From a bacterium (GTDB taxonomy: Bacteria; Armatimonadota; Zipacnadia; Zipacnadales; Zipacnadaceae), in assembly GCA_030615605.1 (NCBI GenBank), contig JAUWYY010000005.1:43682-107681 (forward strand): 64,000 bases of DNA, given 5' to 3'. The notes under the pieces were generated by a model. The model was not told the origin of the DNA. It saw only the letters and a program-made list of their open reading frames with translations, and did no database searches. Positions 25,454 through 48,452 of the stretch are shown here, in pieces; within the stretch, counting starts at the first letter, position 1, and every line of letters starts with the position of its first letter. A program made the translations under genes and the position numbers.

Positions 25454-25481
25454 ATAACTCGGCTTATAGATTCACTTTCCG
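25454..25481 (+). repeat. 28-bp motif ATAACTCGGCTTATAGATTCACTTTCCG (copy 1), ~135 nt upstream of integrase
   Basis: Second copy at 36328-36355 differs at one position (T to C). Both precede paralogous integrase genes in the same orientation. Confidence 0.7.
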
Positions 25482-25616
25482 GCATTTTGGGCTATTTCGC
25501 CAGTATTATGGCCTCACTGTGAGGGGACATAATCCAGACTTATAGCCCGGTTAGCTCTTCCTCGCTGCAACCTCGTATCGAGCCAAAACACTAACCGAAA
25601 GGATGTGTGATGGCGC

Positions 25617-26510: not shown

Positions 26511-26683
26511 TGGGTCAATGAGAGTAGTGGTGCTGATGGGAATAGGTGAGCTGAAAGAGAAGATGGGCAGAGCCGGTGCGTGGTGTCAATGCGCCTTGGG
26601 CTACGATGCAGGAGACTACCCCATGTGTGAAGCCAATGTAACCGATTATTGTTGCGGTCTGCTGGGCGTATACGATTGCAGTT

Positions 26684-27082: not shown

Positions 27083-27286
27083 GAACCTTCACCATTCGAT
27101 CAACAGAGATAGGTATTGTGCATGTTAACAGCTACGTCCTGGTTACTTCTCTTAAGTATAGCCATTTGGCTATGCGCGTGAAACACGGGCAGCGGAAATG
27201 ATTGATGCAGGGCAAGAATATCAGATGATAAATGCAGTAGCAAAAGACACGAGGAATCTCAGTCCGCGGTTCCTTCCAGATGGGTT

Positions 27287-29300: not shown

Positions 29301-29399
29301 CTTCTTCTCCTTGTTATGGGGCGGAGCACAGGGTGCTCTTTGGTGTTGCGGTTGAGCATATCAGGAGAAGAAGTGAGCGGGGTGTAACTTAAGGAGCGG

Positions 29400-30260: not shown

Positions 30261-30663
30261 GATAGGTAAGAGAAAAGGTCCTCGATGTAGTGGGGCAGCA
30301 GTCGCCGATATATTCTTCGCGGCGGGTAGGATTCCTTTGGTGTGGTTGGGAGAAGGTTAATGGTGAAGGTGTCGAGGGGGTTATTCATGGCCGATGTTCT
30401 GCACTTTCTGCACCTCAGGTGAGTGCTGGTGTGATCGAATTTGCTGTGACAAGCTCTTGGACAGGTTAAGTGGAGAGGAGGTTCTCAGCAGGCGGCGAAA
30501 GTGGAGAACAGCGGCGGGCCGGGACAATTGACAGGAACCGGGGGACCAGCGTACACTGGGGGTAAGTAGCGGTGACGTTGAACGCTGCCATAGTGGCACC
30601 CGCCGAAGGCAGAGGTCCGACGGCGAAGGAATAAACGTAGTCGACGGAACGGGAGCCCGGCCT

Positions 30664-31806
30664 ATGTCATACGAGTCCGTTGATGCTCTGCAAAAGTTGC
30701 TATCCGAAGAAGTGTTTCACTATGCCAGCGACAAGAAAAAGGCCGCCGGTAGGGCACTAGGGACCATTGTTGAAATTATTACCTACTATATCTTGCGCAG
30801 TTGGGGGCTTCGAGATTGTGTAGCCATAGAGACGCGACTTCCCGAGTTCGCAAATCCTGAGATCAGTCATAATGTTGAATTTTCTCTCCACCCAATCATT
30901 GCGACCCGCTCCGTCGAGTTTGATGCAGTACCTCCGATCACTGCGAAGAAGATTTGCAGGCAAACGTGTATCACTGCCGATGATCAGCTGAGCAGTAGCA
31001 AGAGTACTCAGCTGCTGAGCACAGATGGACTGCTAAGGAATTCCTGCTCTGTTCTAGATGTACCGATAGGTTCGTACGTTGCGCATTTGGATTCATTCTT
31101 GGATGGGAAATGCTGTATTACGCTTTGTCTTCACGATGCGCACCCTTACGCAGTTGTTGAGTGCAAGCGCGTGGGGGTGGAAGAGGGTATGAAGAAGGGA
31201 CCTCAGACTATCGAGAAGGCGAAGCAGGGCGCATATGTGGCAAGTAGGGTGTCGAGCGTTCAGAAAATCAGATTGAGAGACGGCACTCTGGGCGGTGTCG
31301 TTGAGAAGGTGAATGGAACACTTCTCTACGAAAAGAGATACGACGACCTTCGAAAAAGGATCATGGACTCAGATGTGTCGGAACTGCTGAGGGGGTTCAT
31401 TCTTACAGTAGGTGTTGTGAGCAATCACGGAAATTGGTTTACTTCTGGCGATCAAAATAAGGAGCTCAAAGTCCTATCCCAGTCGTATGATTGGTTGATC
31501 TTCTTGACAGATACAGGACTGGTGCAGTTCATCAATGACCTATTGATGGACACGGTGGCAGAGCTAGAGTCAGCCCGAGATGCTTTCCAGCGAAGCTATT
31601 CGGAGGGTAAAACGAAGAACAGGTTTACAAAGGTCAGAATCGACTGTGAAGCTGATGAGGGAATGCAGGCATATTTTGCCCGGAACTCAGAAAAGGTTGA
31701 GACATGGTTCAATGTGATCGCGCCAGAATCACAAACACTTGAAGTACTGCGAACAGAACTTGATGCATTGAGTAGAAAGGATTGGAGGCGGATTCATTCG
31801 TTATGA
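30664..31806 (+). CDS. Putative type II restriction endonuclease (PD-(D/E)xK candidate), cognate of the downstream MTase
   Basis: GC clearly lower than flanks. Candidate catalytic motif LHDAHPYAVVECK (D...E-x-K). 25-nt overlap with the downstream adenine MTase gene. Confidence 0.4.
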   Translation: MSYESVDALQKLLSEEVFHYASDKKKAAGRALGTIVEIITYYILRSWGLRDCVAIETRLPEFANPEISHNVEFSLHPIIATRSVEFDAVPPITAKKICRQTCITADDQLSSSKSTQLLSTDGLLRNSCSVLDVPIGSYVAHLDSFLDGKCCITLCLHDAHPYAVVECKRVGVEEGMKKGPQTIEKAKQGAYVASRVSSVQKIRLRDGTLGGVVEKVNGTLLYEKRYDDLRKRIMDSDVSELLRGFILTVGVVSNHGNWFTSGDQNKELKVLSQSYDWLIFLTDTGLVQFINDLLMDTVAELESARDAFQRSYSEGKTKNRFTKVRIDCEADEGMQAYFARNSEKVETWFNVIAPESQTLEVLRTELDALSRKDWRRIHSL

Positions 31807-32390
31807 CAGCTGGGCGAAGCGCGAACTCATTGAGCCAAGATTGGGGCACTCCTAAGAAATATGTGGATGCCGTGAAGAAAGTTTTCGGGGGAGTGATTGA
31901 CTTAGACCCGTGCTCTAATGAGCATTCGGTCGTTGGAGCACAAACAGAGTATTGCCTCCCAGAAAAGGACGGACTTTGCGAATCGTGGTGCTTTGGGCGG
32001 ATATACGTTAATCCTCCTTATGGAGCGGACCGTGAAAGAGGGACAAGGATCAGTAACTGGTTGTCTAAGTGTGCGGAGGCCTACAGAGCACATGGGTCAG
32101 AAGTTCTGGCGCTAGTCCCAGTGGCCGCCAATACTACTCACTGGAAGAAATATGTGTGGGGGTGCGCAACAGCGGTCGCCTTTCTCTATGACACGAGATT
32201 GAAATTCTTGATAGGTGGGGTAGAGAACGGGAAGGGAGCACCGATGGCTTGTGCAATGGTTTACTGGGGAGGTAATTACGATAGATTCTTCGATGTCTTC
32301 ACTATGTTTGGGGCGGTCGCTGACTTGCGACCACTGAAGGGAAAGAGGATTGGTGGACGTGACTTGGCTCTTCCGGCGCTGGCGCAATAA
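31782..32390 (+). CDS. DNA N6-adenine methyltransferase, phage-type Dam (PF05869-like)
   Basis: DWGTPKKYVDAVKKVFGGVIDLDPCS...GRIYVNPPYG. The DxWxTP...LDPcs...NPPY family signature. Confidence 0.8.
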   Translation: MEADSFVMTAGRSANSLSQDWGTPKKYVDAVKKVFGGVIDLDPCSNEHSVVGAQTEYCLPEKDGLCESWCFGRIYVNPPYGADRERGTRISNWLSKCAEAYRAHGSEVLALVPVAANTTHWKKYVWGCATAVAFLYDTRLKFLIGGVENGKGAPMACAMVYWGGNYDRFFDVFTMFGAVADLRPLKGKRIGGRDLALPALAQ

Positions 32391-32719
32391 CGCACGAAGT
32401 GCAACATCCAGTGTAGTGTGGTTATTGGGGAGGACTTCCAGTGGCGAGCAAGGATGACTACGAGCAGGTGGGTGGTTGGGTAGGGGCGGGGGTGAGGGGT
32501 AGAAGCGAGGCCTCGGGGGTAGTGCGGCAGCAGTGGGTGGTGTATTCGTTGCGGGGCGTAGGATTCCGTTGGCGTGCCGGGGAGAAGATTAGTGGTAGTC
32601 GGTGGGGAAATGTCGTGGCCTAGTCTATGAGGGGGAGGCTCGTCGGGATGATGCAAGAGGTAAAGCGCTGGTTAGGGTGTCCGTTGCGCCGATGAGGGGG
32701 AATATAGATTGGGTATGGG

Positions 32720-32935
32720 TTAGGCAATCCTCGCATATGGGTAACCGGCCTTCTTGATGTGCTGGTCGAGGTAAGTGCCTTTAGAGGAGGCGCTTAGAAG
32801 ACCTAAGTGGTGGGCTTCGGGGACGCCAATATATTGGTAGACAGCTCCCGTTAGGAACATGATCTCCAGAGTCTGGGTTTGAGGATCGTAGCCGACTTCA
32901 GCTAGGTTAGAGGAAGAGACAGGCATGCGGTCCAT
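32720..32935 (-). CDS. KTSC domain protein
   Basis: VSSSNLAEVGYDPQTQTLEIMFLTGAVYQYIGVPEAHHLGLLSASSKGTYLDQHIK matches the KTSC pattern. Confidence 0.6.
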   Translation of the reverse strand: MDRMPVSSSNLAEVGYDPQTQTLEIMFLTGAVYQYIGVPEAHHLGLLSASSKGTYLDQHIKKAGYPYARIA

Positions 32936-32947
32936 TTTCTGTTCTCC

Positions 32948-34711
32948 TTAGGATGTGGACTGGGTACGCCAGGCTGTGACAGCTTGGTCATAAGGGGTTG
33001 ATGCCTCCGGGTTGGTGGCCCACGCCGCGATGACATCAGGATCAGTGCTCTGGGGGCGTGGTTCAACGAGCGGGAAGCGGACTCTTGTTGGAATCTGAAT
33101 GGCTTCGCCGCTGACGACGGCCTCTCCGGTGCGGAGGGCCGGGAGGAGGTCGACGAGGGCGGTCAGACCCTCGGGAAGAGTGGATCGAATTCTGGCTCGG
33201 TCATCGGAGTTGGATAGACGTAGGGCGAAGAATGTGCCGCACTGCGAGAGAAGGGTTTCGTCGATCTCTGCGGGGCGTTGAGTGACCAGTATTGCGCCGA
33301 CGCCATACTTGCGACCCTCCTTTAGGACGCGCTGAACTGCGCGCCTTGCATAGCCTGTGACTGACTGGACATCTGATCGTGGGAGATACGAGTGGGCCTC
33401 CTCGTAGACTAGGACGATGGGTCGCTGGCGGCCGATGCCCGGCAGATTTCGGCCCCAGAACATGCCCTCAAAGAGTATGCGGGTTAGTGTGCTCACTACG
33501 AGGTCGATAACCTCAAAGGGGACGCCAGCGAGGTCGAAGACGGTGATAGGGTGAGTATGTCCTATCCAGTCTTGGAGAAGGTGATGGAGGTCTTTGTTGT
33601 GACCATCGTACTGCGTGGGGTTGAGAAGGAAGTCGAAGCGACGGTCTTTCAGGCGGCCAAGTATCTTGCTGACATATGATGACATGGGAGTCTGGATGGC
33701 TGGCTTGTACGGGGCTGCAGAGCCTGCTCCTGGGGGAGTAAACGTGGCCGAAATCAGAGTGGTGGCATCTCCCTCGCTGACTAAGGCTTCTTGCGAGCGT
33801 GGCATGTCGAGGTACGTGACGCGCTCTGCTCGGTCTAAAGCGTACCAAAGCTCGCGGATATCAAAGGGGATAGGTGAATCAACAGTGATCTCGTCTGGGC
33901 TTACGGCACCGGCTGATAGGGAGTCGGCGCGGGCGCGCTTGGCCTGGAATATGTGCTCCCGAAGGATGACGTCCTGTAGCGATTCTGAAGTAGTCTTCCG
34001 TTCAACGAGGAACCAGGAGAGTTCGTCAAAGGATAGTGCCCAGTAGGGGATGAGCAAAGGGTGTTGAGGGTCACGGATGCGATAGACGCGACTGTAGCCT
34101 TGGAAAGCACTCGCATACTCGCCATGCGGGTCGATGACGAGGAAGCGGGCGTTGGGGTAGGTAGCGGGGTTGACGGCTGTCAGAAGGTTGGCGACGGCGT
34201 TGGACTTTCCAGCGCCGGTTGCGCCCACGATACATAGATGTCGTGTCACAATCTTGTTCAGGTCAACTCTCGCTGGTAGGGATTGCGAGGCAGCATGGGT
34301 GCCTACGATGATGTGGGATGGTCCCTGCGGGGGATAGATGGTTGCTGTGTCTTCTTCGGTGACGACGTGCACCTCGTCATCAATGGTGGGAAAGATGCTG
34401 ATTCCTCTTTGGAAGGGGTCGCCGGAGTAGGATTCGCCAACTAGCTGGACCTCTATCCAGCGTTGGCCGGTTGGGGGAAGAGGCGGCGCGCTTTCGAGCA
34501 CGTCAAGTTCGGAGGCGCCGACCATGGATACAATGCCATAGAGGTTGAGGTAGCCTATGGGGATCCGAACGAAGGAGCCGATTTGGCCGAGGCGGTGGAG
34601 TCTTCCGCCAATGATGGGGCTGGCTGAGGGAATCTGCGGTGACAGTTCGATGAAGATTCTCGCTCCGACGACACGACGAACGATCCCTAGGAAGGTTGGG
34701 TCAGTCTTCAT
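32948..34711 (-). CDS. herA: HerA-like (DUF87) ATPase of SIR2-HerA antiphage system
   Basis: Walker A HLCIVGATGAGKSNAVANLL. Walker B IVLVYEEAHSYLP. 4-nt overlap (ATGA) with the upstream SIR2 gene. Confidence 0.8.
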   Translation of the reverse strand: MKTDPTFLGIVRRVVGARIFIELSPQIPSASPIIGGRLHRLGQIGSFVRIPIGYLNLYGIVSMVGASELDVLESAPPLPPTGQRWIEVQLVGESYSGDPFQRGISIFPTIDDEVHVVTEEDTATIYPPQGPSHIIVGTHAASQSLPARVDLNKIVTRHLCIVGATGAGKSNAVANLLTAVNPATYPNARFLVIDPHGEYASAFQGYSRVYRIRDPQHPLLIPYWALSFDELSWFLVERKTTSESLQDVILREHIFQAKRARADSLSAGAVSPDEITVDSPIPFDIRELWYALDRAERVTYLDMPRSQEALVSEGDATTLISATFTPPGAGSAAPYKPAIQTPMSSYVSKILGRLKDRRFDFLLNPTQYDGHNKDLHHLLQDWIGHTHPITVFDLAGVPFEVIDLVVSTLTRILFEGMFWGRNLPGIGRQRPIVLVYEEAHSYLPRSDVQSVTGYARRAVQRVLKEGRKYGVGAILVTQRPAEIDETLLSQCGTFFALRLSNSDDRARIRSTLPEGLTALVDLLPALRTGEAVVSGEAIQIPTRVRFPLVEPRPQSTDPDVIAAWATNPEASTPYDQAVTAWRTQSTS

Positions 34712-36075
34712 TTGGGTGCCTCGTCATCTCCTGGTGGTGGGGGAGTCGGGGGCATTGGTGGCTCTGGTGGAGACGAGTGGACAGTGACTGACGAGCCGAG
34801 AAAAGAGGCCAGGTACTGCGCGAACTCCGAGAAGTGGCCAAGGGTGAAGACACCGGATGGGGGGCCTTCGGCAGCGGGGGGAGCGTTCAACGGGGGTTCC
34901 TGGGGGGAGTGCCAATCTCCTTTTACGGTGCCGACGTAAGCGTTGATTGGATCATACACGGTGAGGTTCCGATGCTGTGAGGCGTGGCGGGCGAGGGTGG
35001 GGGTAGCTGGGTCGTGGAGCAGGACCGTAACTGCAAGGCTGGAGTTCGCGCGTAGGCATTGGAGTATGATCTCGTTGATGTGCTGATCAGCAAAGCTATA
35101 TCCAGCGACGATGAGAAGGACGTCTGGGATCAAGAGCAAGGTGCGGAGACGGTCGTGGTATGCCACGAATGGCAGTTTGCGTGAGTCGGAGTACTTCTCG
35201 TGGGACGGAAATATGATGTATTCGTCGGCTTCAGTGACAGTGTCAAGGGGAGCTCGGGCAATGCGATGGGAGTCGTCGAGCTGGGTCTTGACGCGTCGCC
35301 AGCCGATTGAGCCATGGAGCTTCCACAGACGAACCCAGGTGCGGGGCACCGCAGATATATCTGTGCCGAGTCTGGCGTCAGCTTCCACGGTGGAGGGGGC
35401 GAAGAATGGCTCGACGGAGCCAACGAAACCGTCGAAGAAGTAGGTACCAACGTCTTCCATGGCCATTTCGAGCAGAAGGTCGTAATTGGTGGTAAAGACC
35501 TCGATAGGGTAGTCTCTGGGGATGGTACGTAGCCATTGTGCGAAGATTCGCTGGGGGAGGGAATCTTTGGGAGGGGGCTCACTGAGGATCTTAGCGATTG
35601 ACCTGCATATCTGGCGGTCGAGGGGGCAAGCATGCGGACAGGCCAGGGCGGTGTCTGTGGCAGACATTCCAGGGTCGCCATGAGCGGCGCAGATTCGCCC
35701 GCTATCGAGAGAATCGGGAGTCATTGGCGAGACGATCTCGCGGCAAAGACGGATGCGGGTCAGTGCGGCCTCTATGTTGGCATCCGGTCCAAGGCGTTGG
35801 AGCAGATCGGAATAGATGGCAAGCCAGGGAGGGGAAAGCTCCTGTGGAAGCCTTTGGGTGAGTTGGGCCATTCCTGGCATTCCGACGGCCATGGAGGTTC
35901 CGGCGCCGAGCAGGAAGGCGATTCGCCGCTTGTCGGAGGCAAGCTGTTCTCTGAGTTCGGACCTCTCGCGCGCAGGGTCATAGATGAGCCGGTTGGTCAA
36001 TGGAGGCCTCCCCGTCGGATGAGGTACGGGACGTTGGGCTGGGGTGTAGGCCGAATGGATGTGACGCAGTGTCAA
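34708..36075 (-). CDS. SIR2-family (SIR2_2/DHS-like NAD-binding) protein of SIR2-HerA antiphage system
   Basis: IAFLLGAGTSMAVGMPGMAQL (GAGxS...G.P motif) and VFTTNYDLLLE (TTNYD motif of SIR2_2). Confidence 0.75.
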   Translation of the reverse strand: MTLRHIHSAYTPAQRPVPHPTGRPPLTNRLIYDPARERSELREQLASDKRRIAFLLGAGTSMAVGMPGMAQLTQRLPQELSPPWLAIYSDLLQRLGPDANIEAALTRIRLCREIVSPMTPDSLDSGRICAAHGDPGMSATDTALACPHACPLDRQICRSIAKILSEPPPKDSLPQRIFAQWLRTIPRDYPIEVFTTNYDLLLEMAMEDVGTYFFDGFVGSVEPFFAPSTVEADARLGTDISAVPRTWVRLWKLHGSIGWRRVKTQLDDSHRIARAPLDTVTEADEYIIFPSHEKYSDSRKLPFVAYHDRLRTLLLIPDVLLIVAGYSFADQHINEIILQCLRANSSLAVTVLLHDPATPTLARHASQHRNLTVYDPINAYVGTVKGDWHSPQEPPLNAPPAAEGPPSGVFTLGHFSEFAQYLASFLGSSVTVHSSPPEPPMPPTPPPPGDDEAPK

Positions 36076-36327
36076 CCAGCATTTGATTTAGTATACAGAT
36101 TCGCGGTCACTAGTGCAAGTTCTCCAATGTGGAGAACAGGGGACGAGGAATGGCGGCGTAACGAGTTTTTGGGTTAGAGGGGCAAGGAGGTGGCAGGCTC
36201 GGTTTGGTCGAACTATGCACCAGCTCGGTGTGGTGGTGGCGGGGAAGGGCAATAGTGGAACCTTTGGCCGATATTATGTATTCACTGGGAAGCCTGAAAA
36301 GGCCGAAGAAGGGGCATTTCTGAATAC

Positions 36328-36355
36328 ATAACTCGGCTTATAGACTCACTTTCCG
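36328..36355 (+). repeat. 28-bp motif ATAACTCGGCTTATAGACTCACTTTCCG (copy 2), ~170 nt upstream of integrase
   Basis: See copy 1 at 25454-25481. Confidence 0.7.
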
Positions 36356-36523: not shown

Positions 36524-37468
36524 GTGCAAAGCATTATAGACACACTTGCTCAGGAATTCCTGCTCTACCTGCAGGCCGAGAGGGGCTGCAGCCCCCTTAC
36601 CGCCACGTCTTACCGCTCCGATCTGACACAATTGTTCACACATTTGCAAGAAAGCTACGGGGTGGATGAGCCTGCGGAAATCACTGTGGAAATGGTCCGG
36701 TCGTGGATCGTTGCCATGTACGAACGCGGGCTGTGCAGCAACAGTGTGGCCCGTAGGGTCTGTTCGCTGAAGAGCTTCTGGAAGTATCTGTGCGAACGGG
36801 ATCTGGCTGCACCAGAGGTCGTAGCGAGAGTCAGCACGCCGCGACGGGAGAAGACGCTTCCGACTTATCTCAGCAAAGAGTCGTTGCAGAAGCTGCTAGA
36901 TGCAACTCTGCAACAACGCACTGAGTATTGCGCTTTCCGTGACTATGCGATAATGGCCACGTTCATCTACGCGGGCCTACGGCGGGGCGAGCTGCTCAAT
37001 CTTAAAATGGGCGATGTTGATCTAGGCGCTCGGACACTGCGTGTTGTGCGCGGAAAGGGGAACAAGACGCGTATTATTCCGCTGGTCGAGGAGCTGGAGG
37101 AGGCGATTGCTGATTGGCTAGAGTACCGCCGCACCAAGGGGCACGATTACCTGTTCACCACCAACCGGGGCAACCGCATCTACCCAAGCCGCCTGCAGAT
37201 CATCTGGAAGAACATCCTTAACCGGAGTGGCATCAACCGGTCCGGCGTGAGCATGCATACGTTGCGGCATTCTTTTGCGACGCTCCTGCTGCAAACTGGT
37301 AACGCTGATCTGGTCTCCATCCAGCATCTGCTTGGCCACAGCCGACTGGACACGACGGCCATCTATCTGCATGTCGATGCCCAGCAACTGCGTGAGGCAA
37401 TCACGGCGCATCCGCTGTCTAGCGCAAGCGGAGGCGCACAGCCAAGTCGCTCAGTACAGAGCTTATGA
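36524..37468 (+). CDS. Tyrosine recombinase / integrase (paralog of 25617-26510)
   Basis: LYLQAERGCS, RVVRGKGNKTRIIPL, HTLRHSFATLLLQTGNADLVSIQHLLGHSRLDTTAIYLHV. Collinear similarity to the 25617 integrase. Confidence 0.9.
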   Translation: MQSIIDTLAQEFLLYLQAERGCSPLTATSYRSDLTQLFTHLQESYGVDEPAEITVEMVRSWIVAMYERGLCSNSVARRVCSLKSFWKYLCERDLAAPEVVARVSTPRREKTLPTYLSKESLQKLLDATLQQRTEYCAFRDYAIMATFIYAGLRRGELLNLKMGDVDLGARTLRVVRGKGNKTRIIPLVEELEEAIADWLEYRRTKGHDYLFTTNRGNRIYPSRLQIIWKNILNRSGINRSGVSMHTLRHSFATLLLQTGNADLVSIQHLLGHSRLDTTAIYLHVDAQQLREAITAHPLSSASGGAQPSRSVQSL

Positions 37469-37573
37469 CCTCCGGGGGAAGAATAGAAGATAGTCGCGGC
37501 GTGCCTGGTGAGGGAAGGACGCTGCAGCGGCTGCATCCTCCGCGGACGCCAGCATCCTGGGTCCCGCCAACAG

Positions 37574-38149
37574 TCACTCCATCTTCCTAATGCAAGCGGT
37601 ACACCTTTCCTCGCCATCAATGAACCATCGCTGGCAGGGCACGTCGGTCGCCGTGTCGCCAAAGATGAGTAAGAGCCCGTAGCGGTATCCGAACTGTCCA
37701 CAGCGGCTGGTGAAGCGCTTGAGTTTGTCCTCATCTATTGACATGCTATCGGGGTGGCACCGTTTCTTGGCCTCGATCACCAGCAGGTTGTGGCTGGTGC
37801 ACCTGCGGTGGACGATGATATCAGGATAAACCGTCTTGGCCTCTACGTCATCTGGCTCCAGACATTTGTACTTGGCTTGCGAGCATTCGTATTCTCGGCG
37901 CAAGCGCTTAATCTGATCGCCGTCCCTATTGTACTCGCAGTCTACATCCCAGTCGGGGAAGACCTTCTGCAGATGCTCGCCAAGTTTGTGGGTGATAGAC
38001 CGCTCGTTCGCGTCGACGTGGATCAGGTCTTGGTCATTATTGAGGAACCGCCCGAGTGCTTCGTCAACGCGTTCCGCCACCTCTTCACCCGATGGATACT
38101 GTGGGTCTGCTTGCTCCCGATTTGCCATGCGCGTCGCCTCCGGTGCCAC
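37574..38149 (-). CDS. Small PD-(D/E)xK nuclease-fold protein (putative)
   Basis: VYPDIIVHRRCTSHNLLVIEAKK (PD-x13-E-A-K) preceded by an acidic helix. Confidence 0.45.
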   Translation of the reverse strand: MAPEATRMANREQADPQYPSGEEVAERVDEALGRFLNNDQDLIHVDANERSITHKLGEHLQKVFPDWDVDCEYNRDGDQIKRLRREYECSQAKYKCLEPDDVEAKTVYPDIIVHRRCTSHNLLVIEAKKRCHPDSMSIDEDKLKRFTSRCGQFGYRYGLLLIFGDTATDVPCQRWFIDGEERCTACIRKME

Positions 38150-38159
38150 AAGAGTGCCT

Positions 38160-38262
38160 ACTTCGTCTTTGCCGCGTCTCCCATCCGGTACTTGATGTCG
38201 TAGTTGATGATGAAGTCCAGCTCCTCAATGGCGTGGTCGGTGGCGCTTATCTGCCGCTACGT
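38160..38262 (-). repeat. Degenerate copy (DR-A) of the 3' end of the type IIG R-M gene
   Basis: Directly after the TAG stop of the 467-aa ORF, in the same frame, it encodes RQISATDHAIEELD..., cf. QIAATDQAIDKL at the C-terminus of the 40921-44022 gene. About 36 nt of nucleotide similarity (TCAATGGCNTGGTCGGTGGCG). Confidence 0.5.
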
Positions 38263-39660
38263 GCGTGTCAATTGAGTGTAGACGTGCGCAAGTAAGCCAA
38301 CAAGCCGTGTGAGAAGGTACCGCTGCAGCTTCCGATAGTCGCCAGGCCCATGAGGCATGGCCTTGCCAATGCACTGGCTAAAGAACTGAGTGAGCCTAAC
38401 CATCTTCTCCTCAGCACCACTATCATGCTCCACATCGTGGCGATAGAAGTTGTCACGTAGCAGCCTGACTTCATCGTTGACAAAGTCTTGATGTTGAGCA
38501 TCCAGCAAGCTCCATAGAAGACCTTCCTTCTTGCCCCCATCTTCCCACAGCAGGAAATATAAATAATCTACTACCTCGCCAAGAAGCTTCTCTGTCGCCG
38601 CTATAATGCCAGGGAAAGCTGCGATTATACTCATGAACTTCGAGCTGGCACCGAATATGGGTTTCTCCCCGGCAAATCTGGAAGCTCTGTCACAGTCGAG
38701 GATCAATGCACGCACTTGTAGCCCCAATGCCAACTCTGTTTCGTACGGGAGATCTGCCAAGAGTTCTTCTGCATCGATCTGAATACCACGTTCGGCGATT
38801 CGATCGTGTATCTCGGTCCGCTGGACTTGCAGGATGTTATAAGTAGGCAAGGCTCCCACAAAAGGTCCGGAAATGCCCGTTTCTGGATCGTACAGAGTCA
38901 GTGCTTCAAGGTTGCTCGCGCATACTATGCTCGTTGCAGAAGAACTAGCGACTATTCCTGCGCTCGCCCGAACAGTCGCGATCTCATCACCTTCGGCTTC
39001 TTCCTCTTCTATGCGGTAGCGGTTAGCAGTCTGCTCGAACATTCTTGGGGGCTGCAGCAGAACCTCGTGAAGTAAGTCACTCCGCGGAATGTCAAACTGG
39101 GCCAATGAGGCCCTAACTGCAGGGCCCATTGCGAGAGCAGCCTGCGCTGCTTCGGCAATCGCTAGGCTCTGCCCTAGCGCTGCGGCCCGTGTCTTATCCA
39201 TTCGCGCCGACCAAGACAGCAGCGGCGCCATGGACGCCGACACCGCTGCAGATTGCGTTATGGCCGTCTGCATGATCGAGGCCGATTGTTCTTCCAGTCG
39301 CTGGAGGTGCTGAAGATATGATCCTGACACGACGGACGCCAATGATATGGACAACATTACAGATTGGCCTATGGTCACCTCCATCATCCGGTTAGACTGT
39401 TCTTCCATATGCTGAAGGTGCACACCCCATGATTGTGAGAACAACGAGGTTCGATCAATGGCAGCCACAATGGATGATAGGTGGTCCTGCCGCGCTGCCC
39501 ACGCCGCCGTGCGCGCCTCCATTAACGAGTATATATGTGACGGCGAGTAGCCACCCAGCACCCGACTCAGCCCTTCGAAAGATGCCATCCGGGCTTGGAG
39601 TCCTTCGATCGCCTCAAGCTCGTCCTGGTCATCATCTGTCTCGTTGCTCATATCTATCAC
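38257..39660 (-). CDS. Hypothetical protein with internal Gln/Ser-rich helical repeats
   Basis: 467-aa ORF. Tandem approximate repeats HLQHMEEQSNRMMEVTIGQSVMLSISLASVVSGS / YLQHLQRLEEQSASIMQTAITQSAAVSASMAPLLS. No assignable domain. Confidence 0.55.
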   Translation of the reverse strand: MIDMSNETDDDQDELEAIEGLQARMASFEGLSRVLGGYSPSHIYSLMEARTAAWAARQDHLSSIVAAIDRTSLFSQSWGVHLQHMEEQSNRMMEVTIGQSVMLSISLASVVSGSYLQHLQRLEEQSASIMQTAITQSAAVSASMAPLLSWSARMDKTRAAALGQSLAIAEAAQAALAMGPAVRASLAQFDIPRSDLLHEVLLQPPRMFEQTANRYRIEEEEAEGDEIATVRASAGIVASSSATSIVCASNLEALTLYDPETGISGPFVGALPTYNILQVQRTEIHDRIAERGIQIDAEELLADLPYETELALGLQVRALILDCDRASRFAGEKPIFGASSKFMSIIAAFPGIIAATEKLLGEVVDYLYFLLWEDGGKKEGLLWSLLDAQHQDFVNDEVRLLRDNFYRHDVEHDSGAEEKMVRLTQFFSQCIGKAMPHGPGDYRKLQRYLLTRLVGLLAHVYTQLTRT

Positions 39661-39747
39661 ACCGCCTTAGGAACAATGCTTTCACCCTCTTATGATATGA
39701 TTTTGATAAACATCCGCCTGCGTCGCTTCCCATGTAGGTAGGTGACT

Positions 39748-39843
39748 TCATGTTTCCGCTGCTTGGACCATCGCGATCTCCTCGTCGGTCAGCTCGTACA
39801 GCTCATGGATTAGCTCATCAATGGCCTGGTCGGTGGCGGTTTA
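39748..39843 (-). repeat. Partial copy (DR-B, ~88% nt identity over ~70 nt) of the 3' end of the type IIG R-M gene
   Basis: Encodes TATDQAIDELIHELYELTDEEIAMVQAAET* immediately after a TAA, cf. ATDQAIDKLVYELYELSDEEIAIVEGQT*. Overlaps the last 8 codons of the FGE-domain gene in another frame. Confidence 0.6.
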
Positions 39844-40885
39844 CAGACTCAGGCTTGGGCGTGTAGACGCAGCGAAACCCGACGGAGTTGTTGCTATATT
39901 TGGGTGGGGGATGGTGTTCGCGGTTTGTCGTGCGGCACTCATCTTCTCCGTAGAAACAGTTGCCGCCCCGGACGACGCGGCCCTCGCCCTGGAGACGTCC
40001 CCGAGGGTCTTGCACGGTGGCTTCGCTGTCGGGGTAGTCGCCAAACCAGTCTTCGCACCATTCCATGAGGTTTCCGGCCATGCCCAAGGCTCCGCGCCAG
40101 CTTGCACTGTCTGGGAAGGAACCGACAGGACTTGTATACGTAACCTCCGTTTCGTCCCAAGAGTCACCCTCCTCTACGTACTGCTTCCTTTCCCAGTGCC
40201 ATGCTCGGCCTTGATTCTCGCTGCAGCAACACCGAGTCGCGTCCCAACAGTCGCCCCACGGGTATATTCTTCTCTCCGGCCCACGAGCGGCCCACTCCCA
40301 TTCCGCCTCTGTGGGCAGACGCAGGCCATAGTACTCGGCGTAGTCGTGGGCCGCCTGCCAGGTCGCTCCGACAACGGGGTACTTGTCGCGGTCTTCCAGC
40401 GTTCGGTAGTGCCCGCTTTCTAGCACAATATCGGACGGTTCGCACATCACAACGGGGTCAATTCTGGCTCGGTTGTGACCGCTCTCAATGAGCTTGTTCA
40501 GATACTGTGCGTACTGCGTGTTAGTAACGAGACACTTCATAAGCCAGAAGCCATTGGAGATGCATACCTTTTGAGTCGGTCCACCCCCGGGCTTGTCGTC
40601 TCCCATTAGGAACTCGCCATCTGGCACCCAGACCATGGACGCAAGCGTCGGGCCAGCAATTACCTGACCCAGCTCCCCTGGGGTGCGCCAGAGGTGGCCC
40701 GACGGCCCATTCGCTGCGCCAAGGCCTCGCCGCAAAGCCTGGCCCGCTCTGCGTCTCGCTCGGCGCGCATTCCACCATCTGCTGAGCCGTGTCTCGACTG
40801 GCCCCGACACCCGACGCTTGAAATCGCTCCACAGCACTACCAATAGACTGTTGTCCTTTATTTCCACCTGATCCCCCTCCTTCAA
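39818..40885 (-). CDS. Formylglycine-generating enzyme (FGE/SUMF1)-sulfatase domain protein
   Basis: GATWQAAHDYAEYYGLRLPTEAEWEWAARG...GNLMEWCEDW...RVVRGGNCF. Matches the PF03781 pattern. Confidence 0.75.
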   Translation of the reverse strand: MKEGDQVEIKDNSLLVVLWSDFKRRVSGPVETRLSRWWNARRARRRAGQALRRGLGAANGPSGHLWRTPGELGQVIAGPTLASMVWVPDGEFLMGDDKPGGGPTQKVCISNGFWLMKCLVTNTQYAQYLNKLIESGHNRARIDPVVMCEPSDIVLESGHYRTLEDRDKYPVVGATWQAAHDYAEYYGLRLPTEAEWEWAARGPERRIYPWGDCWDATRCCCSENQGRAWHWERKQYVEEGDSWDETEVTYTSPVGSFPDSASWRGALGMAGNLMEWCEDWFGDYPDSEATVQDPRGRLQGEGRVVRGGNCFYGEDECRTTNREHHPPPKYSNNSVGFRCVYTPKPESVNRHRPGH

Positions 40886-40920
40886 CTAAGCATAAGAGTG
40901 TCTGGCTCCTGGCTGACCTC

Positions 40921-43900
40921 CTACGTCTGTCCCTCCACTATCGCAATCTCCTCGTCGCTCAGCTCGTACAACTCATAGACCAGCTTATCAATGGCCTGGT
41001 CGGTGGCGGCTATCTGGCGCTGGAGGCGCTCGCGGCTGCGCGGCGTCTTGACCTGGGCCAGGCGCTTGTGCAGCTCCAGCATCGTCTCCACCAGCTCAAC
41101 CATCTTATCGTGCCGCGCCACATCCGCCGGGTCATCAAAATCAATCGTGCGGATGGGAAGGCGCTTAACGTATCGCGGCTCATATGCAAACCAACCGCCC
41201 TGAAACCGCGAGCTGATCTTCTGGAGATAGAAGGTAAGAACACGTGAATTAAGGACACCGAGAACGTACATTGTGAGCGCCTTGTCGGCGATGACGATCC
41301 CCATTCCACCACCAGCCCCCTGCGGGAAATAGAGCCCAGAGTCGTCGAGCGCGAACGCATTGGCTGGTGCGAGTGTCGGAGTTACGATTTTCGTAGATTC
41401 GAACATCATCATAGACGAACTGAAACTCAAGCCATACCAAGCAGGCCCCTTCATCTTGCCTTTTTCTCGTCGTTGGAGTTTGGATTGATTGTCACGGAGG
41501 CGCTGCCAAATCTCTGGCGCACTTGCCTTGACGGTCGCTTCCGGCAGTAAGGTAGTGGCACCACCCTCAAGTGCATACGGATAGATCAAGTGCCTAGCAC
41601 TAGGACCGACATAATAGCGTTTAAGGCTTTCAGCCTTAAGGTATTTCTTGAGACAGCTACTACCTTCTTCACGTGTGGCCATTATTCCAATTCCGTTCGG
41701 AATCTCTCCCGCCTCTAACACGAACACGTCATTGGCGCCTGTCTTAACACCCGTGATCATTTCCGAAGCGAGAGCAGGCAGTGGCTGGCCAATCTGATCC
41801 AGCTTCTGGCAGAGGTCTTGTTCGTCCCTATACCCGAGCGTCCATGGCCCAGTGCCCAATCGCCCGACGTCTATCTCCTCTATACGCCCGCCGCCGAGTA
41901 GTGTCTGCGGTGTCTCGTCTCTCGGATTGAACTGTGCTAGGAAAGAGTCTTGAGGAGAAGGCGTTGCAAATACGAGGCATGTGTATGATGTTGCGCCCTC
42001 GAAGACCTGTGCTGCTTGGAAGTCAACTATGCGCTGCAGGCCGCACTTTTTGGTCAAGAGTTGACGCAGACCCACACCATAATCAGCCTGTAGGAATTTA
42101 TTGGGGACGATGAAACCCATTTGGCCATTGGACCTGAGGACCTGCAGGGCTAATTCAATGAATGCAACGTAGATGTCAACCTTGCCAAATATAGCCGATC
42201 TGAAGTGCGTTTGAATGTAGCGAACCTCGGTTGGGTAGAAGTCGACAAGTCTGTGTATACGAATATACGGCGGATTACCGATGACGCAGTCGAAGCCGCC
42301 GGCGGACATTATCTCGGGGAACTCCGCGTCCCAGTCAAAGGCGTTGACGCGGCGGGCCTCCTCCTCGTCAATCAGTGCAAGCTGCCTCCCCTCATAATAG
42401 TCCGGCCCGATGAGACTGTTGCCACACTTGATATTATCGTCAATATTGGGCAGCACCCGCTCCTGGGCCAGTTGCAACTGCCCGCTGAGCGTCTCCTCGG
42501 TCTCCCCCTCCATACATTTGAGCAGCAGGTTGAGCTTGGTGACCTCCACGGCCTGCGAGTCAATATCCACACCAAAGATGTTGTTGAGCAGGATGCGCTT
42601 GCGCTCGAAGGTGGACAGCCGCCATTCGTTCTCGAGCACCTGGATAATGGCCGGCTGCGGGCCACGGGCATGCTTCCTGGGGCTATGGTTGGTGTAGTAG
42701 TCCAGGTGCCAGTTGAGCAGATACTGGTACGCACCCAGCAAAAATGAACCGGAGCCACAGGCCGGGTCGAGAATGCGCAGCTTGCTGGCCGCTTCCGGCG
42801 TCTCGGCCTCTTCCAGCGCCGGGCCGACGGTGTGCTCGACGATGTAGTCCACGATGTAGGTGGGTGTGTAGTAGACGCCACCGGCCTTCTTGACCTCGGG
42901 CTTCTCCTCGACTTTGGCGCGGTGGCTGGGGGTCAGGCGAATTACCTTGCCCAGGAACTGCTCGTAGACAGCCCCGAGGATATCGGCACCCAGCACGGAG
43001 AACTCATAGGGGCACTGCGGATAGTAAAGCTCGGCCAGAATAGACTGCAGAGCCTTGTCGGAGACCTCCAGTTCGGGCGTCAACTGATCCCCGCTGGAGC
43101 TGAAGTCAAACAGCCCGGCGTTATACTTGGTATCGGCCTGCTGGTAGAGCTGGCACAGACGCGGGTAGAGACCCGTGCCGTCCAGCAGGTCGCGCAGGCG
43201 ACCGTACGGCTCAACGCCCCGGTCTTCGGCAATGCGAAAGAACAGGATGCGGTCAATAGTGGTCTGGACGGCGAAGTTCAGGTCGTGCACGGACAGGTCA
43301 AGGTTGTGGCGGGCGATGTCTTTGGCCAGCATCTCCCGCCACTGCTCAATCTCCTGGAGGAACTCCGAGTCAACCTCGGTGGTGCCACGCTTGCGGCGTG
43401 TGCCTTCGGCATAGCGGTCAAAGGACCCCTTCAGTATCGCCTCTTTGGCGAAGATCGAGTAGATGTCGTCCAGGCGATCGACGTATTCATCATAGGTTAT
43501 GAAGTCAACCCGAGCCACGCTGGGCCCATCTGCCTCCTGAGGCCGCTTGCTGCAGTCGTAAACCGCGAATTCCTCAAAGTCAGTCAGGATGGACCGGGGC
43601 AGCTTCGCACTCCAGCCGTAACGGCGAAGCTGGTAGGCCGGCGAGGGATCGGTCTTTATGTGCACCGAGGGCTTCTTTGCTTCCAGGAAGAACTTGCGCT
43701 GGCCGCCGATGCGGAAGCAGTAATCCGGCGCTTTGGTGGCACCCCGGACCTTGATGGCGTCCTCGTGGATAACTTCCTTGTAGGGCTCGGCATAGCCCTG
43801 CTCGTTGGCAATATCCCAGCCCAGCGCCTCAAAGAAGGGGTCAATGAACTCCTGCCTCAGTTGCGCTTCACGGTACGAGACAGCAGCATACTGGTCAGCG

Positions 43901-45199: not shown

Positions 45200-47845
45200 T
45201 CAGCAGTCCTGGCGGCGCAACACGTACACAGGAGCCTCGACCTCCTCATTCGCTGCGGTGCCTATTGGCCGCTGTTCCCAAGGCGGCGGTTGTCGCTCAA
45301 TGCCGGAAGCTGCAACAAGGGTGGAAACAGGACACTGCCATGCGGCGGCAATGGCGGAGAGCACGATTCCTACAAGGGTGCGTGAGTGGTGGGTAACGGG
45401 ATCTCCCCGCATTTCGCGCGGCACCGGCCACAATGCAGGCGTTAGCTCCCACCCTATGCCGACAAGGTTAGCAACGTGCGTGTGTGTCGCCACAACATGA
45501 TCCTCGACGACAATATCATGCGCTTCTTCGCGTTTCTTGTTGAACACGCCGATAGCCATGATGAGCACCTCATCACTCCACTCAATGGTTGACAGCTCTG
45601 TTGCAGCGCGCGGTCGACCACCGACATATGCCACGGGGAGCGGGCCCGTATCACCACCCACTGCACGAACAGAAGCGGCAAGTTTCATCGCGTTCTCCGC
45701 TGCGAGCGTCGACCCCAAGAGCTGCGCCTGTTCGGTCGCCCATCGCGCGAGTTCCTCATCGTTGACGATGGGCCTGGCAGCCCCTCGGGATGCGGTGACG
45801 GGCATCCCGAACAGCACGCCAGCAACACCATCGAGCCGGGTGGCGTGGAGCCCTCCCACGACCACAGCCCCCGGACCCGGTCGGCCGCCTCTCGGTCCAC
45901 CCACGACGGCGACCGGGGGAATGAGCCATGCACGTCCGATCACGCGGCCAGACCGGTCATGCAGAGCACGGCAATTGCTCGCGAGTGCAAGCATCGTCTC
46001 CGCATTGTGGGTTGATTCCCAGTAAGGTGTAATCCTCTGTAGACGCGCGACAAGTTCGGTCGGGTTCATTTCCATCCAGTCGTTGACCCTGACTGGACAC
46101 CGCGTATCTCTCCCCTCATACTGCGTCTCAAGCGTCACGTCAAGGCATGGGTATGCAGCCTCGCAGAACTCGGCGAGCGGGTCCTCCCGAAATGCGATGT
46201 GCCCAATGAGGCCATCTTCGGCGCGTGGCGGCTGATCGAGCCAGACACGCACCACTGTACCCCCGTCTTCGAGCCTCTGGTCAGTGCTCGCTGGGCGAAC
46301 CACGGGTCGCCGCTGCAGGGAGTTGAACTCCAGTACGAGGGTGCTGTCCAGGCCCCTATCGCAGCGCCTCGTCGTAACGCGGACACGTTCGCCAAGCATG
46401 AAGACTGAGAAGAAGCCAATCCCGAAGCGACCGATCGGCCGAAAGCCGCTCGACAGCAGGCCCGGGGATTCGCGCTGCAGGAGAGGGCTGTCCCAGTAGC
46501 ATGTGCCAAAATCGAGGAGAGGCCCTGTGAGGACCTCCTAGGACATGCCCACACCATTGTCCTCGACCTCAAGCCAGTGGGTGTCCCCGTCGCTGCCGAT
46601 TCTGACACGAATGGTGCCCCAGCCATCACCGCGCTCTTCGAGGGCTCTGCGAGCACGCACGGCGTCTGCCGCATTCTGCACGAGTTCGCGCAGTGCCACG
46701 CTTGGATCGTCGCCATACAGAGCCCTGCCCCCCAACTTCTCGATCACCGCGAGTGGCTCGGATACCCCTACTCTCGCATCGACGGGCACCCATCCCACGA
46801 CAGGAACGAGTTGCGCGAGCCGGCGCGGGCTTTCGATACCGGCCACGCCGCGCACGGCAAATCGCTGCCGGCCCGTATCGGCGAGAAGCTGATCAACGCG
46901 ATGTAACTCGTCGTCAACCGTGACGAGTGTGTCGTGACACAGCCACCACGCATCTGCCAGATCCTCGCCGAACGGTGCTCCGGCAGTGAACATGAGGCGG
47001 TCGACGTGAAGGTACGGACGGTGAAGGTGCTCCTGGAACCGCCAGTGATCCCGAGAGAGCCCCTCCGGCTTTCGGAGCACTCTCAGGAGAACCGGAGCCC
47101 GGCTCGCGTCGATGTGAGCCGCGTCAGCAGCCCTCAAGAGGCACGCCACCTTCAGCGGGTCCATCTGCCACTGCCGAGGGAAGAGGCTTGGCGCCCCAAG
47201 GCCAGACCCGAACTCATGTTCGAGTTGCTCCACTGACCACCAGTGGCTGTGACCCAACCGGCCTATGGTGGGCCCGAGGTGCGAGCGGAGAGTGGAGTCC
47301 TCGAGCAAGAAGATCTGCTCACCTGTATCGGGATCATCCCAGTACATTGCAGGCAACTCCTCTGCCCTTAGAGCATGAAGTTCTCTAAGCGTGATTGCGT
47401 CCGCGCGCCGCTTGATGTCTTCAGGGGCGTTATCGATTTCCTCCTCACCTGGATATTGGCCCGTGTGCTCACGCAACTCCGCCACAACCGTGTCTCGCCA
47501 GATGGGATGCTGTCGCAACTGATCGGCGCCTCCGGGGTAGACGGCCAGGCTCAGTCCCAGATCATGGAGAAGGAAGGCCGCGCCCAAGACGAAGGCCTCG
47601 CACGGGGTCATTTTGTAGTCCTCGCCGGCGACCAGATCAGCGCTCTTCCAGAGCCCATCCAGGTGGCTGACGTCGTGCAACGTGTAGTCGGGAAGATCAC
47701 GGGCTATCTCGCCAGCAAGTAGCGCCGCCCTGGCCCGCATGCGCCGGAACGAGGTCCTGAGGCGCTCTCGCGGTTCCTCATGCTTGTCATCTGGTATTGA
47801 CGCGAGCGTGGCCCTCCATAGAGTGGTAGACTCATACTCAGGCAT
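45200..47845 (-). pseudogene. HD-domain + HSP90-like (GHKL/Bergerat) ATPase gene interrupted by one in-frame TAG at 46538-46540
   Basis: Upstream ORF ends ...ELVQNAADAV (N-box)...EVEDNGVGMS (G1 box) then TAG. The same frame continues EVLTGPLLDF...GRFGIGFFSVFMLGERV (G2 box, cf. HSP90 IGQFGVGFYSAF) into ORF 45200-46399. N-terminal region has HD motifs TLHDVSH...AAFLLHDLG. Confidence 0.7.
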
Positions 47846-48067: not shown

Positions 48068-48452
48068 TGCCGATTACCTCCCAGCTCTAATACTCCCACG
48101 GATCTTGCCAGCACCTGACCTGGCCGCATAATGGTACCACCTGCTGTGTTAGTCCTAGTGCGCCTGTACAGCCATGGCACCTGGAACCGGTGGCCGATAG
48201 TGAAGCGCACTGTGTCGCCCCCAGTTTTGTAGTATCTTCGCCATCGCGCGCTCGATCCCTTGCGCATCTCCACAAGTGCCTCGTTGGACCACTATTCCTC
48301 GGCCAGCGCGGCAATCTGCTCCTGCAATTCCGTAAGCTGCTGCTGCAACTCGACGATCTGCTATTGCCGTCTGTTGTGTGGTCAGCTCAAGGTCTGGCAC
48401 GATCCCTGCTGCAATTCGCCGCTGTGTGTCTGCCACCTGCTCGACGGTCAGC

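Follow-up and report, generated by a model that had tools for sequence, protein, structure and literature searches.

Organization of the locus

The window analysed here is a 64,000-nt stretch of contig JAUWYY010000005.1 from a bacterium of the Armatimonadota. It carries a type IIG restriction-modification (R-M) gene that is followed by three further genes, and the 3' end of the R-M gene, here called its tail, recurs in front of the second and the third of them. All genes between 37574 and 44022 lie on the minus strand, and a gene for a Xer-like tyrosine integrase, which the initial annotation had already recognized and which is confirmed by its Pfam match, lies on the plus strand (Table 1). 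Loci fetched for comparison are designated by L numbers.

The 1033-aa product of the R-M gene combines in one polypeptide a nuclease at the N-terminus, an N6-adenine methyltransferase of the gamma class and, at the C-terminus, a target-recognition domain (TRD), with Pfam matches to HSDR_N (residues 84-162), N6_Mtase/Eco57I/MmeI_Mtase (346-674) and TaqI_C (870-957). On this domain content, its assignment as a full-length type IIG enzyme is solid. The gene immediately behind it encodes an FGE-sulfatase-domain protein. The second gene encodes a 467-aa protein which matched no model in Pfam, NCBIfam or PADLOC and has only three homologues among 5.8 billion clusters; one of these, 58% identical and located at L081, is likewise flanked by tails. 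For the third, PD-Lambda-3_A-like gene (PD-Lambda-3A), the ATG at 38128 is probably the real start of the 191-aa open reading frame (ORF), giving a protein of 184 aa, and no neighbour of this gene matched any other PD-Lambda-3 model of PADLOC. Tail and partner gene are spaced by GGAGG plus 8 nt in the window, and overlap by ATGA in L113. Exact look-ups of the window type IIG protein, P0001 and P0002 returned no record.

Table 1. Features of the type IIG array and of its integrase-side surroundings (window coordinates)
Feature	Coordinates	Strand	Remarks
Type IIG R-M gene, 1033 aa	40921-44022	minus	PADLOC REase_MTase_IIG 8.9e-243, residues 28-1028
Copy 1	40921-41021	minus	own end of the type IIG gene, functional tail (…RQIAATDQAIDKLVYELYELSDEEIAIVEGQT, stop); last codons and spacer of the FGE type
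Cassette gene 1, FGE-sulfatase-domain protein, 355 aa	39818-40885	minus	Pfam PF03781 3.9e-47
Copy 2	39748-39840	minus	orphan tail; 89% identical to copy 1 over 73 nt (39767-39839 vs 40937-41009, repeat finder)
Cassette gene 2, 467-aa protein	38257-39660	minus	no family assignment
Copy 3	38161-38258	minus	hybrid orphan tail; 45-nt left part 84% identical to copy 1, right part divergent
Cassette gene 3, PD-Lambda-3_A-like	37574-38128 (ORF 37574-38149, 191 aa)	minus	PADLOC PDLC03986 1.3e-37
Distal end of array	37500-37573	.	homology to L113 resumes at ~37499-37518; no tail remnant
Xer-like tyrosine integrase	36524-37468	plus	Pfam Phage_integrase 2.7e-38; convergent with the array, at its distal end
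28-nt direct repeat ATAACTCGGCTTATAGACTCACTTTCCG	36328-36355	plus	partner at 25454-25481, 27/28 identical; likely att site of the integrase
Island gene, SIR2	34708-36075
Island gene, HerA	32948-34711
Island gene, Dam-like methyltransferase	31782-32390
Island gene, integrase	27287-28219
Island gene, integrase	25617-26510

A repeat finder also returned a three-member family (38214-38258, 39807-39851 and 40977-41021). The 29-nt core CGCCACCGACCAGGCCATTGATGAGCTGG, allowing three mismatches or fewer, occurs exactly three times in the 64 kb, against 0.00 expected from 100 shuffles. The initial annotation had placed a copy of ~88% identity at 39748-39843, which was confirmed with its end at 39840, and a degenerate one at 38160-38262. 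The latter is indeed a copy of the repeat; its right half, however, belongs to another tail family and is not a product of decay. The frame relations proposed for the two copies both hold: the FGE ORF enters copy 2 out of frame and stops at the TGA within CATTGAT, and copy 3 follows in frame after the TAG of the 467-aa gene. Copy 2 begins with a 15-nt left remnant, ACCGCCACCGACCAG, that goes with the FGE cassette. Its remaining 78 nt, the right part AIDELIHELYELTDEEIAMVQAAET up to the stop, go with the 467-aa gene. Copy 3 joins a left part of the same family (type 1), extending to GCCATTGA (38225-38258), to a right part of a second family (type 2), ELDFIINYDIKYRMGDAAKTK up to the stop, which runs from GGAGCTGGAC on (38161-38224).

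Searches with the 29-mer and a 17-mer (three mismatches or fewer) and with a hidden Markov model (HMM) of the tail revealed no fourth copy beyond the integrase or elsewhere in the window. Around the distal boundary at ~37500 there is no convincing tail remnant, the 7-nt match ACCAGGC being a coincidence of the window that is absent from L113. Neither tRNA/tmRNA genes nor Rfam families were detected in the window or in the L081 array. A scan with the sigma-70 consensus found no site in any copy, and a promoter within the tail was rejected on this result as a reason for the copies to be kept.

The junctions of copy 3 were reproduced independently. A Logan assembly of SRR14872670 (L212, 963 nt) is 100% identical to window positions 37321-38283, covering the end of the 467-aa gene, copy 3 with both its junctions, the PD-Lambda-3A gene and the 3' end of the integrase gene. 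Absence of the repeats from an independent assembly, which had been named beforehand as the outcome that would speak against them, was thus not observed. The junction of FGE and copy 2 was seen again in L202, a metagenome of another project. The identical Logan match and the recurrence of junctions in other projects make mis-assembly unlikely, and the many substitutions by which the copies differ from one another rule out a collapsed or duplicated repeat.

Orphan copies are tails of different methyltransferase alleles

When all copies were aligned on GCCATTGA, the last ~5 codons of the tail and the spacer were found to track the gene downstream. An FGE-type end is present in window copy 1, L149 and L181, and a 467-type end in window copy 2 and the first copy of L081 (c1). 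The right part of copy 1, GGACAGACGTAGGAGGTCAGC, is common to L149 and L181, in both of which FGE comes next, and is absent from L179 and L184. Likewise, the right part of window copy 2 and its spacer are 79% identical to L081 c1 over 218 nt, the similarity continuing into the gene. The left boundary of an orphan tail tracks the gene upstream: the right junction of FGE, CTGAGTCTG[T/C]AA/ACCGCC, is identical in the window and L202, and the tails and flanks after it differ. Left remnants measured ~15-21, 17-21, 26, 29, 31, ~40, 43 and ~50 nt. The unit is therefore composed of a right tail part, a short spacer, one gene and a left remnant of 15-50 nt, which is the layout of a contiguous slice of a donor operon of methyltransferase plus partner.

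In all nine orphan type-1 tails the frame is open to a stop at the usual place, and their differences from the consensus fall at codon positions 1, 2 and 3 in the numbers 13, 9 and 46. The open frames and this codon pattern indicate that the tails diverged while functional. Judged from these alignments, the orphan copies are tails of different methyltransferase alleles and not decayed duplicates of the resident end. The initial annotation had interpreted them as partial duplications of the gene's own 3' end; apart from the open frames, this is contradicted by right parts that co-vary with the downstream gene and by the right part of copy 3, which comes from the other methyltransferase tail family.

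In copy 3, two non-homologous tail families are joined at the microhomology GAnGAnCTGG, the second ending in …ELDFIINYDIKYRMG. Its right part together with the PD-Lambda-3A gene is 80.6% identical to L213 from window position 38226 on. In three further metagenomes (L213/L214, L215 and L216), homologues of PD-Lambda-3A have a type-2 tail before and after them, and the neighbours of these tail-flanked genes differ (TIR, a 179-aa protein, DUF3800 and a SIR2-like gene). A decayed type-1 tail as the source of the right half of copy 3 is ruled out by L213, L215 and L216, in which the type-2 tail travels with PD-Lambda-3A. The type-2 tail forms the C-terminus of an annotated DNA methyltransferase of 1100 aa on Synechocystis pSYSX and of others, and is also found in many ORFs of 34-88 aa, some holding two copies. 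In a plasmid of Candidatus Chlorohelix allophototropha (L218, 4089-5123), a 344-aa 'hypothetical protein' ends in a complete type-2 tail; its gene lies three genes downstream of a DNA methyltransferase and could be part of a split methyltransferase or a gene fused to a tail.

Cassette content varies at identical flanks

A metagenome scan with a 20-mer of the core gave 120 loci, 112 of which were chance matches, as were five viral ones. The eight true tail loci came, in seven cases, from the sister projects SDBU01 and SDBT01. L113 has a tail, a 269-aa gene, a second tail and a 311-aa gene with a weak TIR match; L131 a tail, a TIR gene and a tail; L184 a gene without recognized family, a tail and a DUF4062 gene. 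FGE homologues lie behind a tail in L149 and L181 and in front of one in L202. L179 has a type IIG gene 94% identical to that of the window with nothing behind it. The L081 stretch, on which there is no type IIG gene, has a tail, the 437-aa homologue of the 467-aa protein, a tail, a YfbU gene and a third tail; L139 comes from the same contig (SDBU01000012.1) and repeats this array.

Two comparisons show different cassettes at the same position. Nucleotides 1-193 of L113 correspond to window positions 37307-37499, which cover the integrase 3' end (95.3% identity), but its cassettes are two other genes. L081 and L181 are 95% identical over 1989 nt of hslUV and over the adjacent 79 nt; they then carry the 437-aa and YfbU genes in one case and type IIG and FGE genes in the other. 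Cassettes of the window in turn recur elsewhere (L081, L181 and L202). The check that had been suggested for the locus, variable cassettes at one position in relatives, hence gave a positive result, and the logic of serial insertion of cassettes is borne out, although the proposal that insertion is site-specific is unproven.

Three further observations were made at these loci. Between L081 (15211-16681) and L181 (5011-6570) the interval from hslV to xerC differs in strains that are 94-96% identical. L081 carries an Mrr_cat nuclease gene there and L181 different genes, making this interval, next to a Xer-type recombinase gene, a second variable spot. L131 (SDBU01402435.1, 1-1030) has an exact 99-nt terminal repeat, corresponding to a 931-bp cycle of tail plus TIR gene, and the contig starts at the left edge of tail homology. 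Possible sources of this unit are a cassette in circular form, duplication in tandem and a loop of the assembly graph. In L081, a structured insert of 56 nt (11450-11505) or 93 nt (12520-12612) interrupts two orphan tails at precisely one position, ACCGA/…/GCCATTGA. Both forms share their ends, and the long form contains a 9-bp inverted repeat, GATTCAGCC…GGCTGAATC; no copy was found elsewhere in the fetched loci, and the insert had no Rfam match.

The tail flanks an exchanged target-recognition domain

Comparison with L179 revealed a second kind of variation. The two type IIG genes match at window positions 43705-42265 (94%) and 41160-40931 (92.6%), with no match between them, so that the TRD segment (~41160-42265) is replaced relative to L179 and both flanks are conserved. 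As read from this alignment, the difference is a clean swap of the specificity domain. The DNA conserved on the 3' side of the TRD comprises the tail and the ~165 nt before it, and nothing else. L179 at the same time represents the empty state, a type IIG gene with no cassette behind it.

Such 'domain movement', the swapping of TRDs by recombination at conserved flanks, is known from specificity genes of Type IIG, Type I and Type III systems. Allelic TRD diversity in a Type IIG gene has been documented (PMC2853133). The present case resembles TRD swapping in that a conserved segment 3' of the TRD serves as recombination anchor (window versus L179). It differs in having extra genes and orphan tails, whereas swapping exchanges a stretch inside the gene without leaving a duplicate behind. 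One and the same DNA segment would thus serve specificity swapping and cargo accretion alike.

Tails and partner genes of distant homologues

Eighty loci with homologues 36-59% identical to the type IIG protein were fetched, and orphan tails were counted over 73 of them by searching six-frame fragments with an HMM of the last 32 residues. The homologues at the fetched loci all terminate in I[DN]xLVYxLYGLTxEEIxIVEG. A confident second tail was present at 8/73 loci (L033, L034, L041, L057, L060, L063, L076 and L077), and a weaker one at L001. Without exception these orphan tails lie on the same strand, downstream of the gene and nowhere else, which answers positively the question, raised with the initial annotation, whether 3'-end copies also stand behind other genes of this kind. 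ORFs between the copies encode 279 aa (L063), 139, 248 and 72 aa (L077), 103 aa (L034), 62 aa (L033) and 286 aa (L001). In L041, L057 and L076 the copies are 137-200 nt apart and enclose nothing more, an older tail of another type having been displaced with a long left extension. An archaeal locus from Candidatus Methanocrinis alkalitolerans (L060, 3044-3580) has a tandem duplication of 429 nt (98%) that takes in the 3' end of the type IIG gene and sequence downstream.

A same-strand ORF starting between -30 and +200 nt from the type IIG stop was present at 38 of 67 loci and fell into 26 unrelated families, so that a variable partner gene is the rule. The sole recurrent family among the 26 is a partner of 62-153 aa that overlaps the type IIG stop by 3-25 nt and is shared by 12 Bacteroidota-type loci (L012, L013, L014, L018, L019, L023, L033, L036, L062, L069, L070 and L080). 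PDB searches with either tail gave nothing useful; the nearest solved relative, CamA, does not reach the tail.

The neighbouring integrase probably belongs to a different repeat

The Xer-like integrase scores 250 bits with the NCBIfam XerC model (cut-off 335) and is below the XerD cut-off too; with two integron-integrase models it reaches 104.9 bits (cut-off 265) and 66.9 bits (cut-off 435). Its orthologues (68-92% identity) are followed on the 3' side by wholly different, tail-less cargo: PQQ proteins, Prok-E2/ThiF/JAB genes, AAA_15 with an N6_N4 methyltransferase, and PD40 proteins. The right copy of the 28-nt direct repeat lies ~170 nt upstream of the integrase gene, on its 5' side, and bears no similarity to the tail core. 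The repeat has the form ATAACTCGGCTTATAGA[T/C]TCACTTTCCG, and no third copy was found.

The two 28-nt repeats enclose an insertion of 10.85 kb (25482-36327), a SIR2-HerA island that is absent from L208. GC skew in the island is +0.21 to +0.29, against ~+0.06 and -0.06 on its two sides. The first island integrase (25617-26510) is 44% identical to the Xer-like integrase and is located ~135 nt from the left repeat. Judged from this layout, there are probably two tandem elements, each made up of att site, integrase gene and cargo, with the type IIG array as cargo of the second, which would start at 36328. The Xer-like enzyme probably serves the island on which the array rides, and the tails are probably not its substrate. 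A role for it in the array, implied by the initial annotation, is not supported in view of its own repeat on the other side and of the L081 and L181 arrays, which lack it. These two have a housekeeping-type xerC, scoring near the cut-off, beside hslVU and ~4 kb from the array. An integrase common to the window and L081 arrays was ruled out, since the two proteins are 30% identical and that of L081 is the xerC next to hslVU.

Two observations concern the opposite side of the array. Window positions 48187-48247 are 80% identical over 61 nt to positions 16033-16093 of L209, whose integrase-side cargo is entirely different; the segment is a candidate for the distant limit of the variable region that lies downstream of the integrase. 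Between 45200 and 47845, the gene of an HD-CE domain protein (46538-47845), whose end matches HATPase_c in truncated form, is followed by a family-less 399-aa ORF. A third ORF (46135-46716) overlaps both, and the three may be one frameshifted gene.

A model for the growth of the array

Taken as a whole, these comparisons lead us to favour, with modest confidence, an array that has grown by accretion: defence cassettes of one gene each would have docked on the conserved tail that ends a DNA-methyltransferase gene, here of type IIG. A cassette would consist of the right part of a donor tail (from about GCCATTGA to the stop), a spacer with the ribosome-binding site, the partner gene and a left tail part of 15-50 nt. 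Recombination within the tail would place it directly behind the resident gene. The incoming tail would complete the resident ORF, so that the R-M gene stays intact, and the older tail would be shifted downstream, where it precedes the older cassette. With l (or L) and r for left and right tail parts, repeated rounds would give the observed order of type IIG gene, L/r-FGE tail, FGE gene, l/r-467 tail, 467-aa gene, l/r-PDL3A tail and PD-Lambda-3A gene. Crossovers would mostly be homology-driven (RecA-type), with occasional microhomology joints. The tail may be used for them because it is the sole conserved DNA 3' of the hypervariable TRD, and it would double as the right-hand anchor for TRD swapping. 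Among the cassette genes, FGE, PD-Lambda-3A, TIR, DUF4062 and YfbU are of defence type, with functions predicted from Pfam and PADLOC matches.

From the available assemblies, we think that tail-anchored, mostly homologous recombination is to be preferred to a site-specific reaction. The architecture recurs with unrelated tails and in distant phyla, and no recombinase is consistently linked to it. Several points weigh against this model. Left remnants fall within 15-50 nt although ~165 nt are conserved (P ~7e-5 under a uniform model), a confinement not expected from simple homologous recombination. The edges of GCCATTGA coincide exactly with three junctions (the left ones of L081 c2 and c3, where the 56- or 93-nt insert splits the tails, and the right one of window copy 3), as would suit the overlap region of a tyrosine recombinase. 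The shuffling of existing cassettes is accounted for by homologous exchange, but not the way in which a gene first gained tails on both sides, and the last cassette of the window (PD-Lambda-3A) has no distal tail. Finally, recombination is deduced here from comparison of static genome and metagenome assemblies, and no event was observed directly. The sequences themselves show the repeats, the make-up of the cassettes, the match between tail ends and downstream genes, the variable content at identical flanks and the recurrence in other lineages and with a second tail family; the order of events, the kind of recombination and the defence role of the cassettes are deduced from them.

Site-specific insertion and other explanations

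Site-specific insertion is the strongest competitor, and we regard it as possible but rather unlikely. The tail would contain an att-like core, GACCAG-GCCATTGATAAG-CTGGTC, acted on in trans by a tyrosine recombinase, or by the Xer-like integrase next to the array. Excision would yield circular cassettes with an l/r junction, able to re-insert at any tail, much as in tandem islands at tRNA 3' ends or in an integron with a coding-tail attC. Each unit is indeed bounded by direct repeats, and the target ORF is made whole again by the incoming tail, as happens in integration of the tRNA type. The narrow zone of left remnants and the three GCCATTGA-edge junctions also speak for this explanation, the 931-bp unit of L131 with its terminal repeat is compatible with a circular cassette, and the Xer-like integrase adjoins the array in both the window and L113. 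However, this integrase has a repeat of its own, which lies on the side away from the array and bears no relation to the tail core; its orthologues carry cargo without tails, and the L081 and L181 arrays have no such enzyme, only the housekeeping-type xerC. Left boundaries vary between cassettes, the 6-bp inverted repeat of the core is disrupted in two of the three copies (2 and 3), and an identical architecture is seen with the unrelated type-2 tail and with AT-rich Bacteroidota tails. Moreover, the tails lack an attC-like fold. Single-stranded DNA folding of the three copies and the bottom strand gave z-scores of +1.38, -0.96, +1.86 and -0.01, and attC-like folding was rejected on these values.

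Alternatively, the orphan tails could be all that is left of deleted genes, that is, of tandem pairs of methyltransferase and partner whose later methyltransferase bodies were lost except for their last 90-125 nt. The orphan tails do look like once-functional tails of different alleles, a partner gene stands at operon distance behind each tail (including the overlapping one of L113), and the older tails of L041, L057 and L076, with their long left extensions, lie 137-200 nt behind a gene whose own tail is of another type. We nevertheless consider this improbable: at least eight independent deletions would have to end in the same 35-nt zone of a 3.1-kb gene, and neither the identical FGE right junction in two downstream contexts nor the two-sided tails of PD-Lambda-3A in three unrelated contexts would be explained.

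In-situ partial tandem duplication of the gene's own 3' end, followed by decay and unrelated insertions, is largely refuted and very improbable. Identity to the gene tail does fall with distance (89%, then 84% for the core only), a true tandem duplication exists at the type IIG 3' end of L060, and insertions with long target duplications are known around R-M genes (PMC2853133). Against this, the copies differ mainly at synonymous sites and without frameshift or stop, their right parts are closer to tails that precede the same gene in other genomes than to copy 1, and the right half of copy 3 is of a different family. An assembly artefact, namely chimeric joins at a repeat common to several type IIG loci of a metagenome, is scarcely credible, even if the window probably stems from a metagenome-assembled genome and tails are repeated in the community, given the identical Logan assembly across copy 3 and both its junctions, the recurrence of unique gene-to-tail junctions in other projects (L202 and L081) and the at most ~23 nt of exact identity between copies, too little to mislead an assembler.

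Comparison with known systems

Islands that target tRNA or tmRNA genes, and tycheposons, insert serially at the 3' end of a gene, bring a replacement end and leave displaced partial copies of the target. For tandem islands, the tycheposons of Prochlorococcus (bioRxiv 10.1101/2020.12.28.424599) were taken as comparator. The array shares with this type serial 3'-end insertion, an intact target, partial copies between the units, strain-variable content and cargo-only units without an integrase of their own. Its units are flanked by direct partial copies of the target, and the replacement end keeps the type IIG ORF intact. On crossover position the evidence is divided between the three GCCATTGA-edge junctions and left remnants whose length depends on the cassette. 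The array differs in its target, which is the coding end of a methyltransferase gene and not a tRNA gene, in its units, which are single genes of ~0.6-1.5 kb, in its variable left boundaries and in the use of two unrelated tail sequences. No dedicated integrase could be tied to the repeats; the neighbouring one has another att-like repeat and tail-less orthologue cargo, and is missing from L081 and L181, though it might act in trans.

Integron arrays are similar in their mostly single-gene, promoter-poor cassettes in one orientation, in repeats of ~60-130 nt and in strain-variable content, and the origin of cassettes is an open question in both. Here, by contrast, the repeat precedes the gene and is a protein-coding tail without hairpin potential, and the neighbouring integrase falls well short of the cut-offs for integron integrases and lies at the distal end of the array, in convergent orientation. 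An integron integrase (by the IntI cut-offs), attC folding and a divergent integrase gene beside the insertion point were not found, and no attI was identified.

Around R-M genes, the Kobayashi group has documented insertions whose flanks are long target duplications (PMC2853133). These cases resemble the array in an R-M-linked insert, direct repeats of tens of bp that are single-copy in the empty allele, and an insert free of mobility genes. In the array, however, the R-M gene is the target and not the insert, the copies are tails of different alleles, and the end of the upstream copy belongs to the insert. An empty allele does exist (L179), but the copies differ in the manner of alleles, mostly synonymously. 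A phase-variable R-M shufflon (hsdS/PglX), which would have inverted repeats, silent partial copies of specificity genes and an invertase beside them, does not fit, as the copies are all direct and the intervening genes (FGE, the 467-aa gene without family and PD-Lambda-3A) are not TRDs.

Modules between pdif sites on Acinetobacter plasmids, and the integrative mobile elements exploiting Xer (IMEX) at dif, are small, recombinase-less and bounded by short sites, and they occur in arrays. The likeness lies in small gene modules that lack a recombinase of their own and are arrayed between recombination sites. The difference is that the tail core is not a dif-like 11-6-11 palindrome and that the repeats are direct, coding and of two unrelated families. 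In place of a 28-bp dif-type site there is the 6-bp inverted repeat GACCAG…CTGGTC with 12-nt spacing and no more, broken in copies 2 and 3. Limited literature searches (by tail motif, and by cassette, type IIG and defence-island terms) returned no prior description of cassette arrays bounded by methyltransferase tails.

Implications for defence islands

A bolder interpretation, which we advance as a doubtful speculation, is that a conserved methyltransferase segment coding for a C-terminal helix constitutes the attachment site of widespread single-gene defence cassettes, forming an 'integron without its own integrase'. The tail families involved would include at least …LVYELYGLTEEEIAIVEG and …HYGFTDEELDFIINYDIKYRMG. 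Cassettes may leave as small circles that carry a tail junction and enter again downstream of any methyltransferase gene that is compatible, donating a new tail each time. If so, cassette traffic would help to keep tails alike across unrelated methyltransferase families, and breaks made by restriction enzymes could stimulate the exchange.

If the accretion of cassettes on R-M tails is confirmed, it would add a further route by which defence islands are built, with the coding tail of an R-M gene as docking point for single defence genes. The position behind an orphan methyltransferase tail would offer a handle for new defence genes, for which the 467-aa, 269-aa and 311-aa proteins are candidates, and many 'hypothetical proteins' of 30-90 aa would be explained as tail fragments. 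The arrays would also provide a small and tractable system for how gene cassettes originate, a question still open for integrons.

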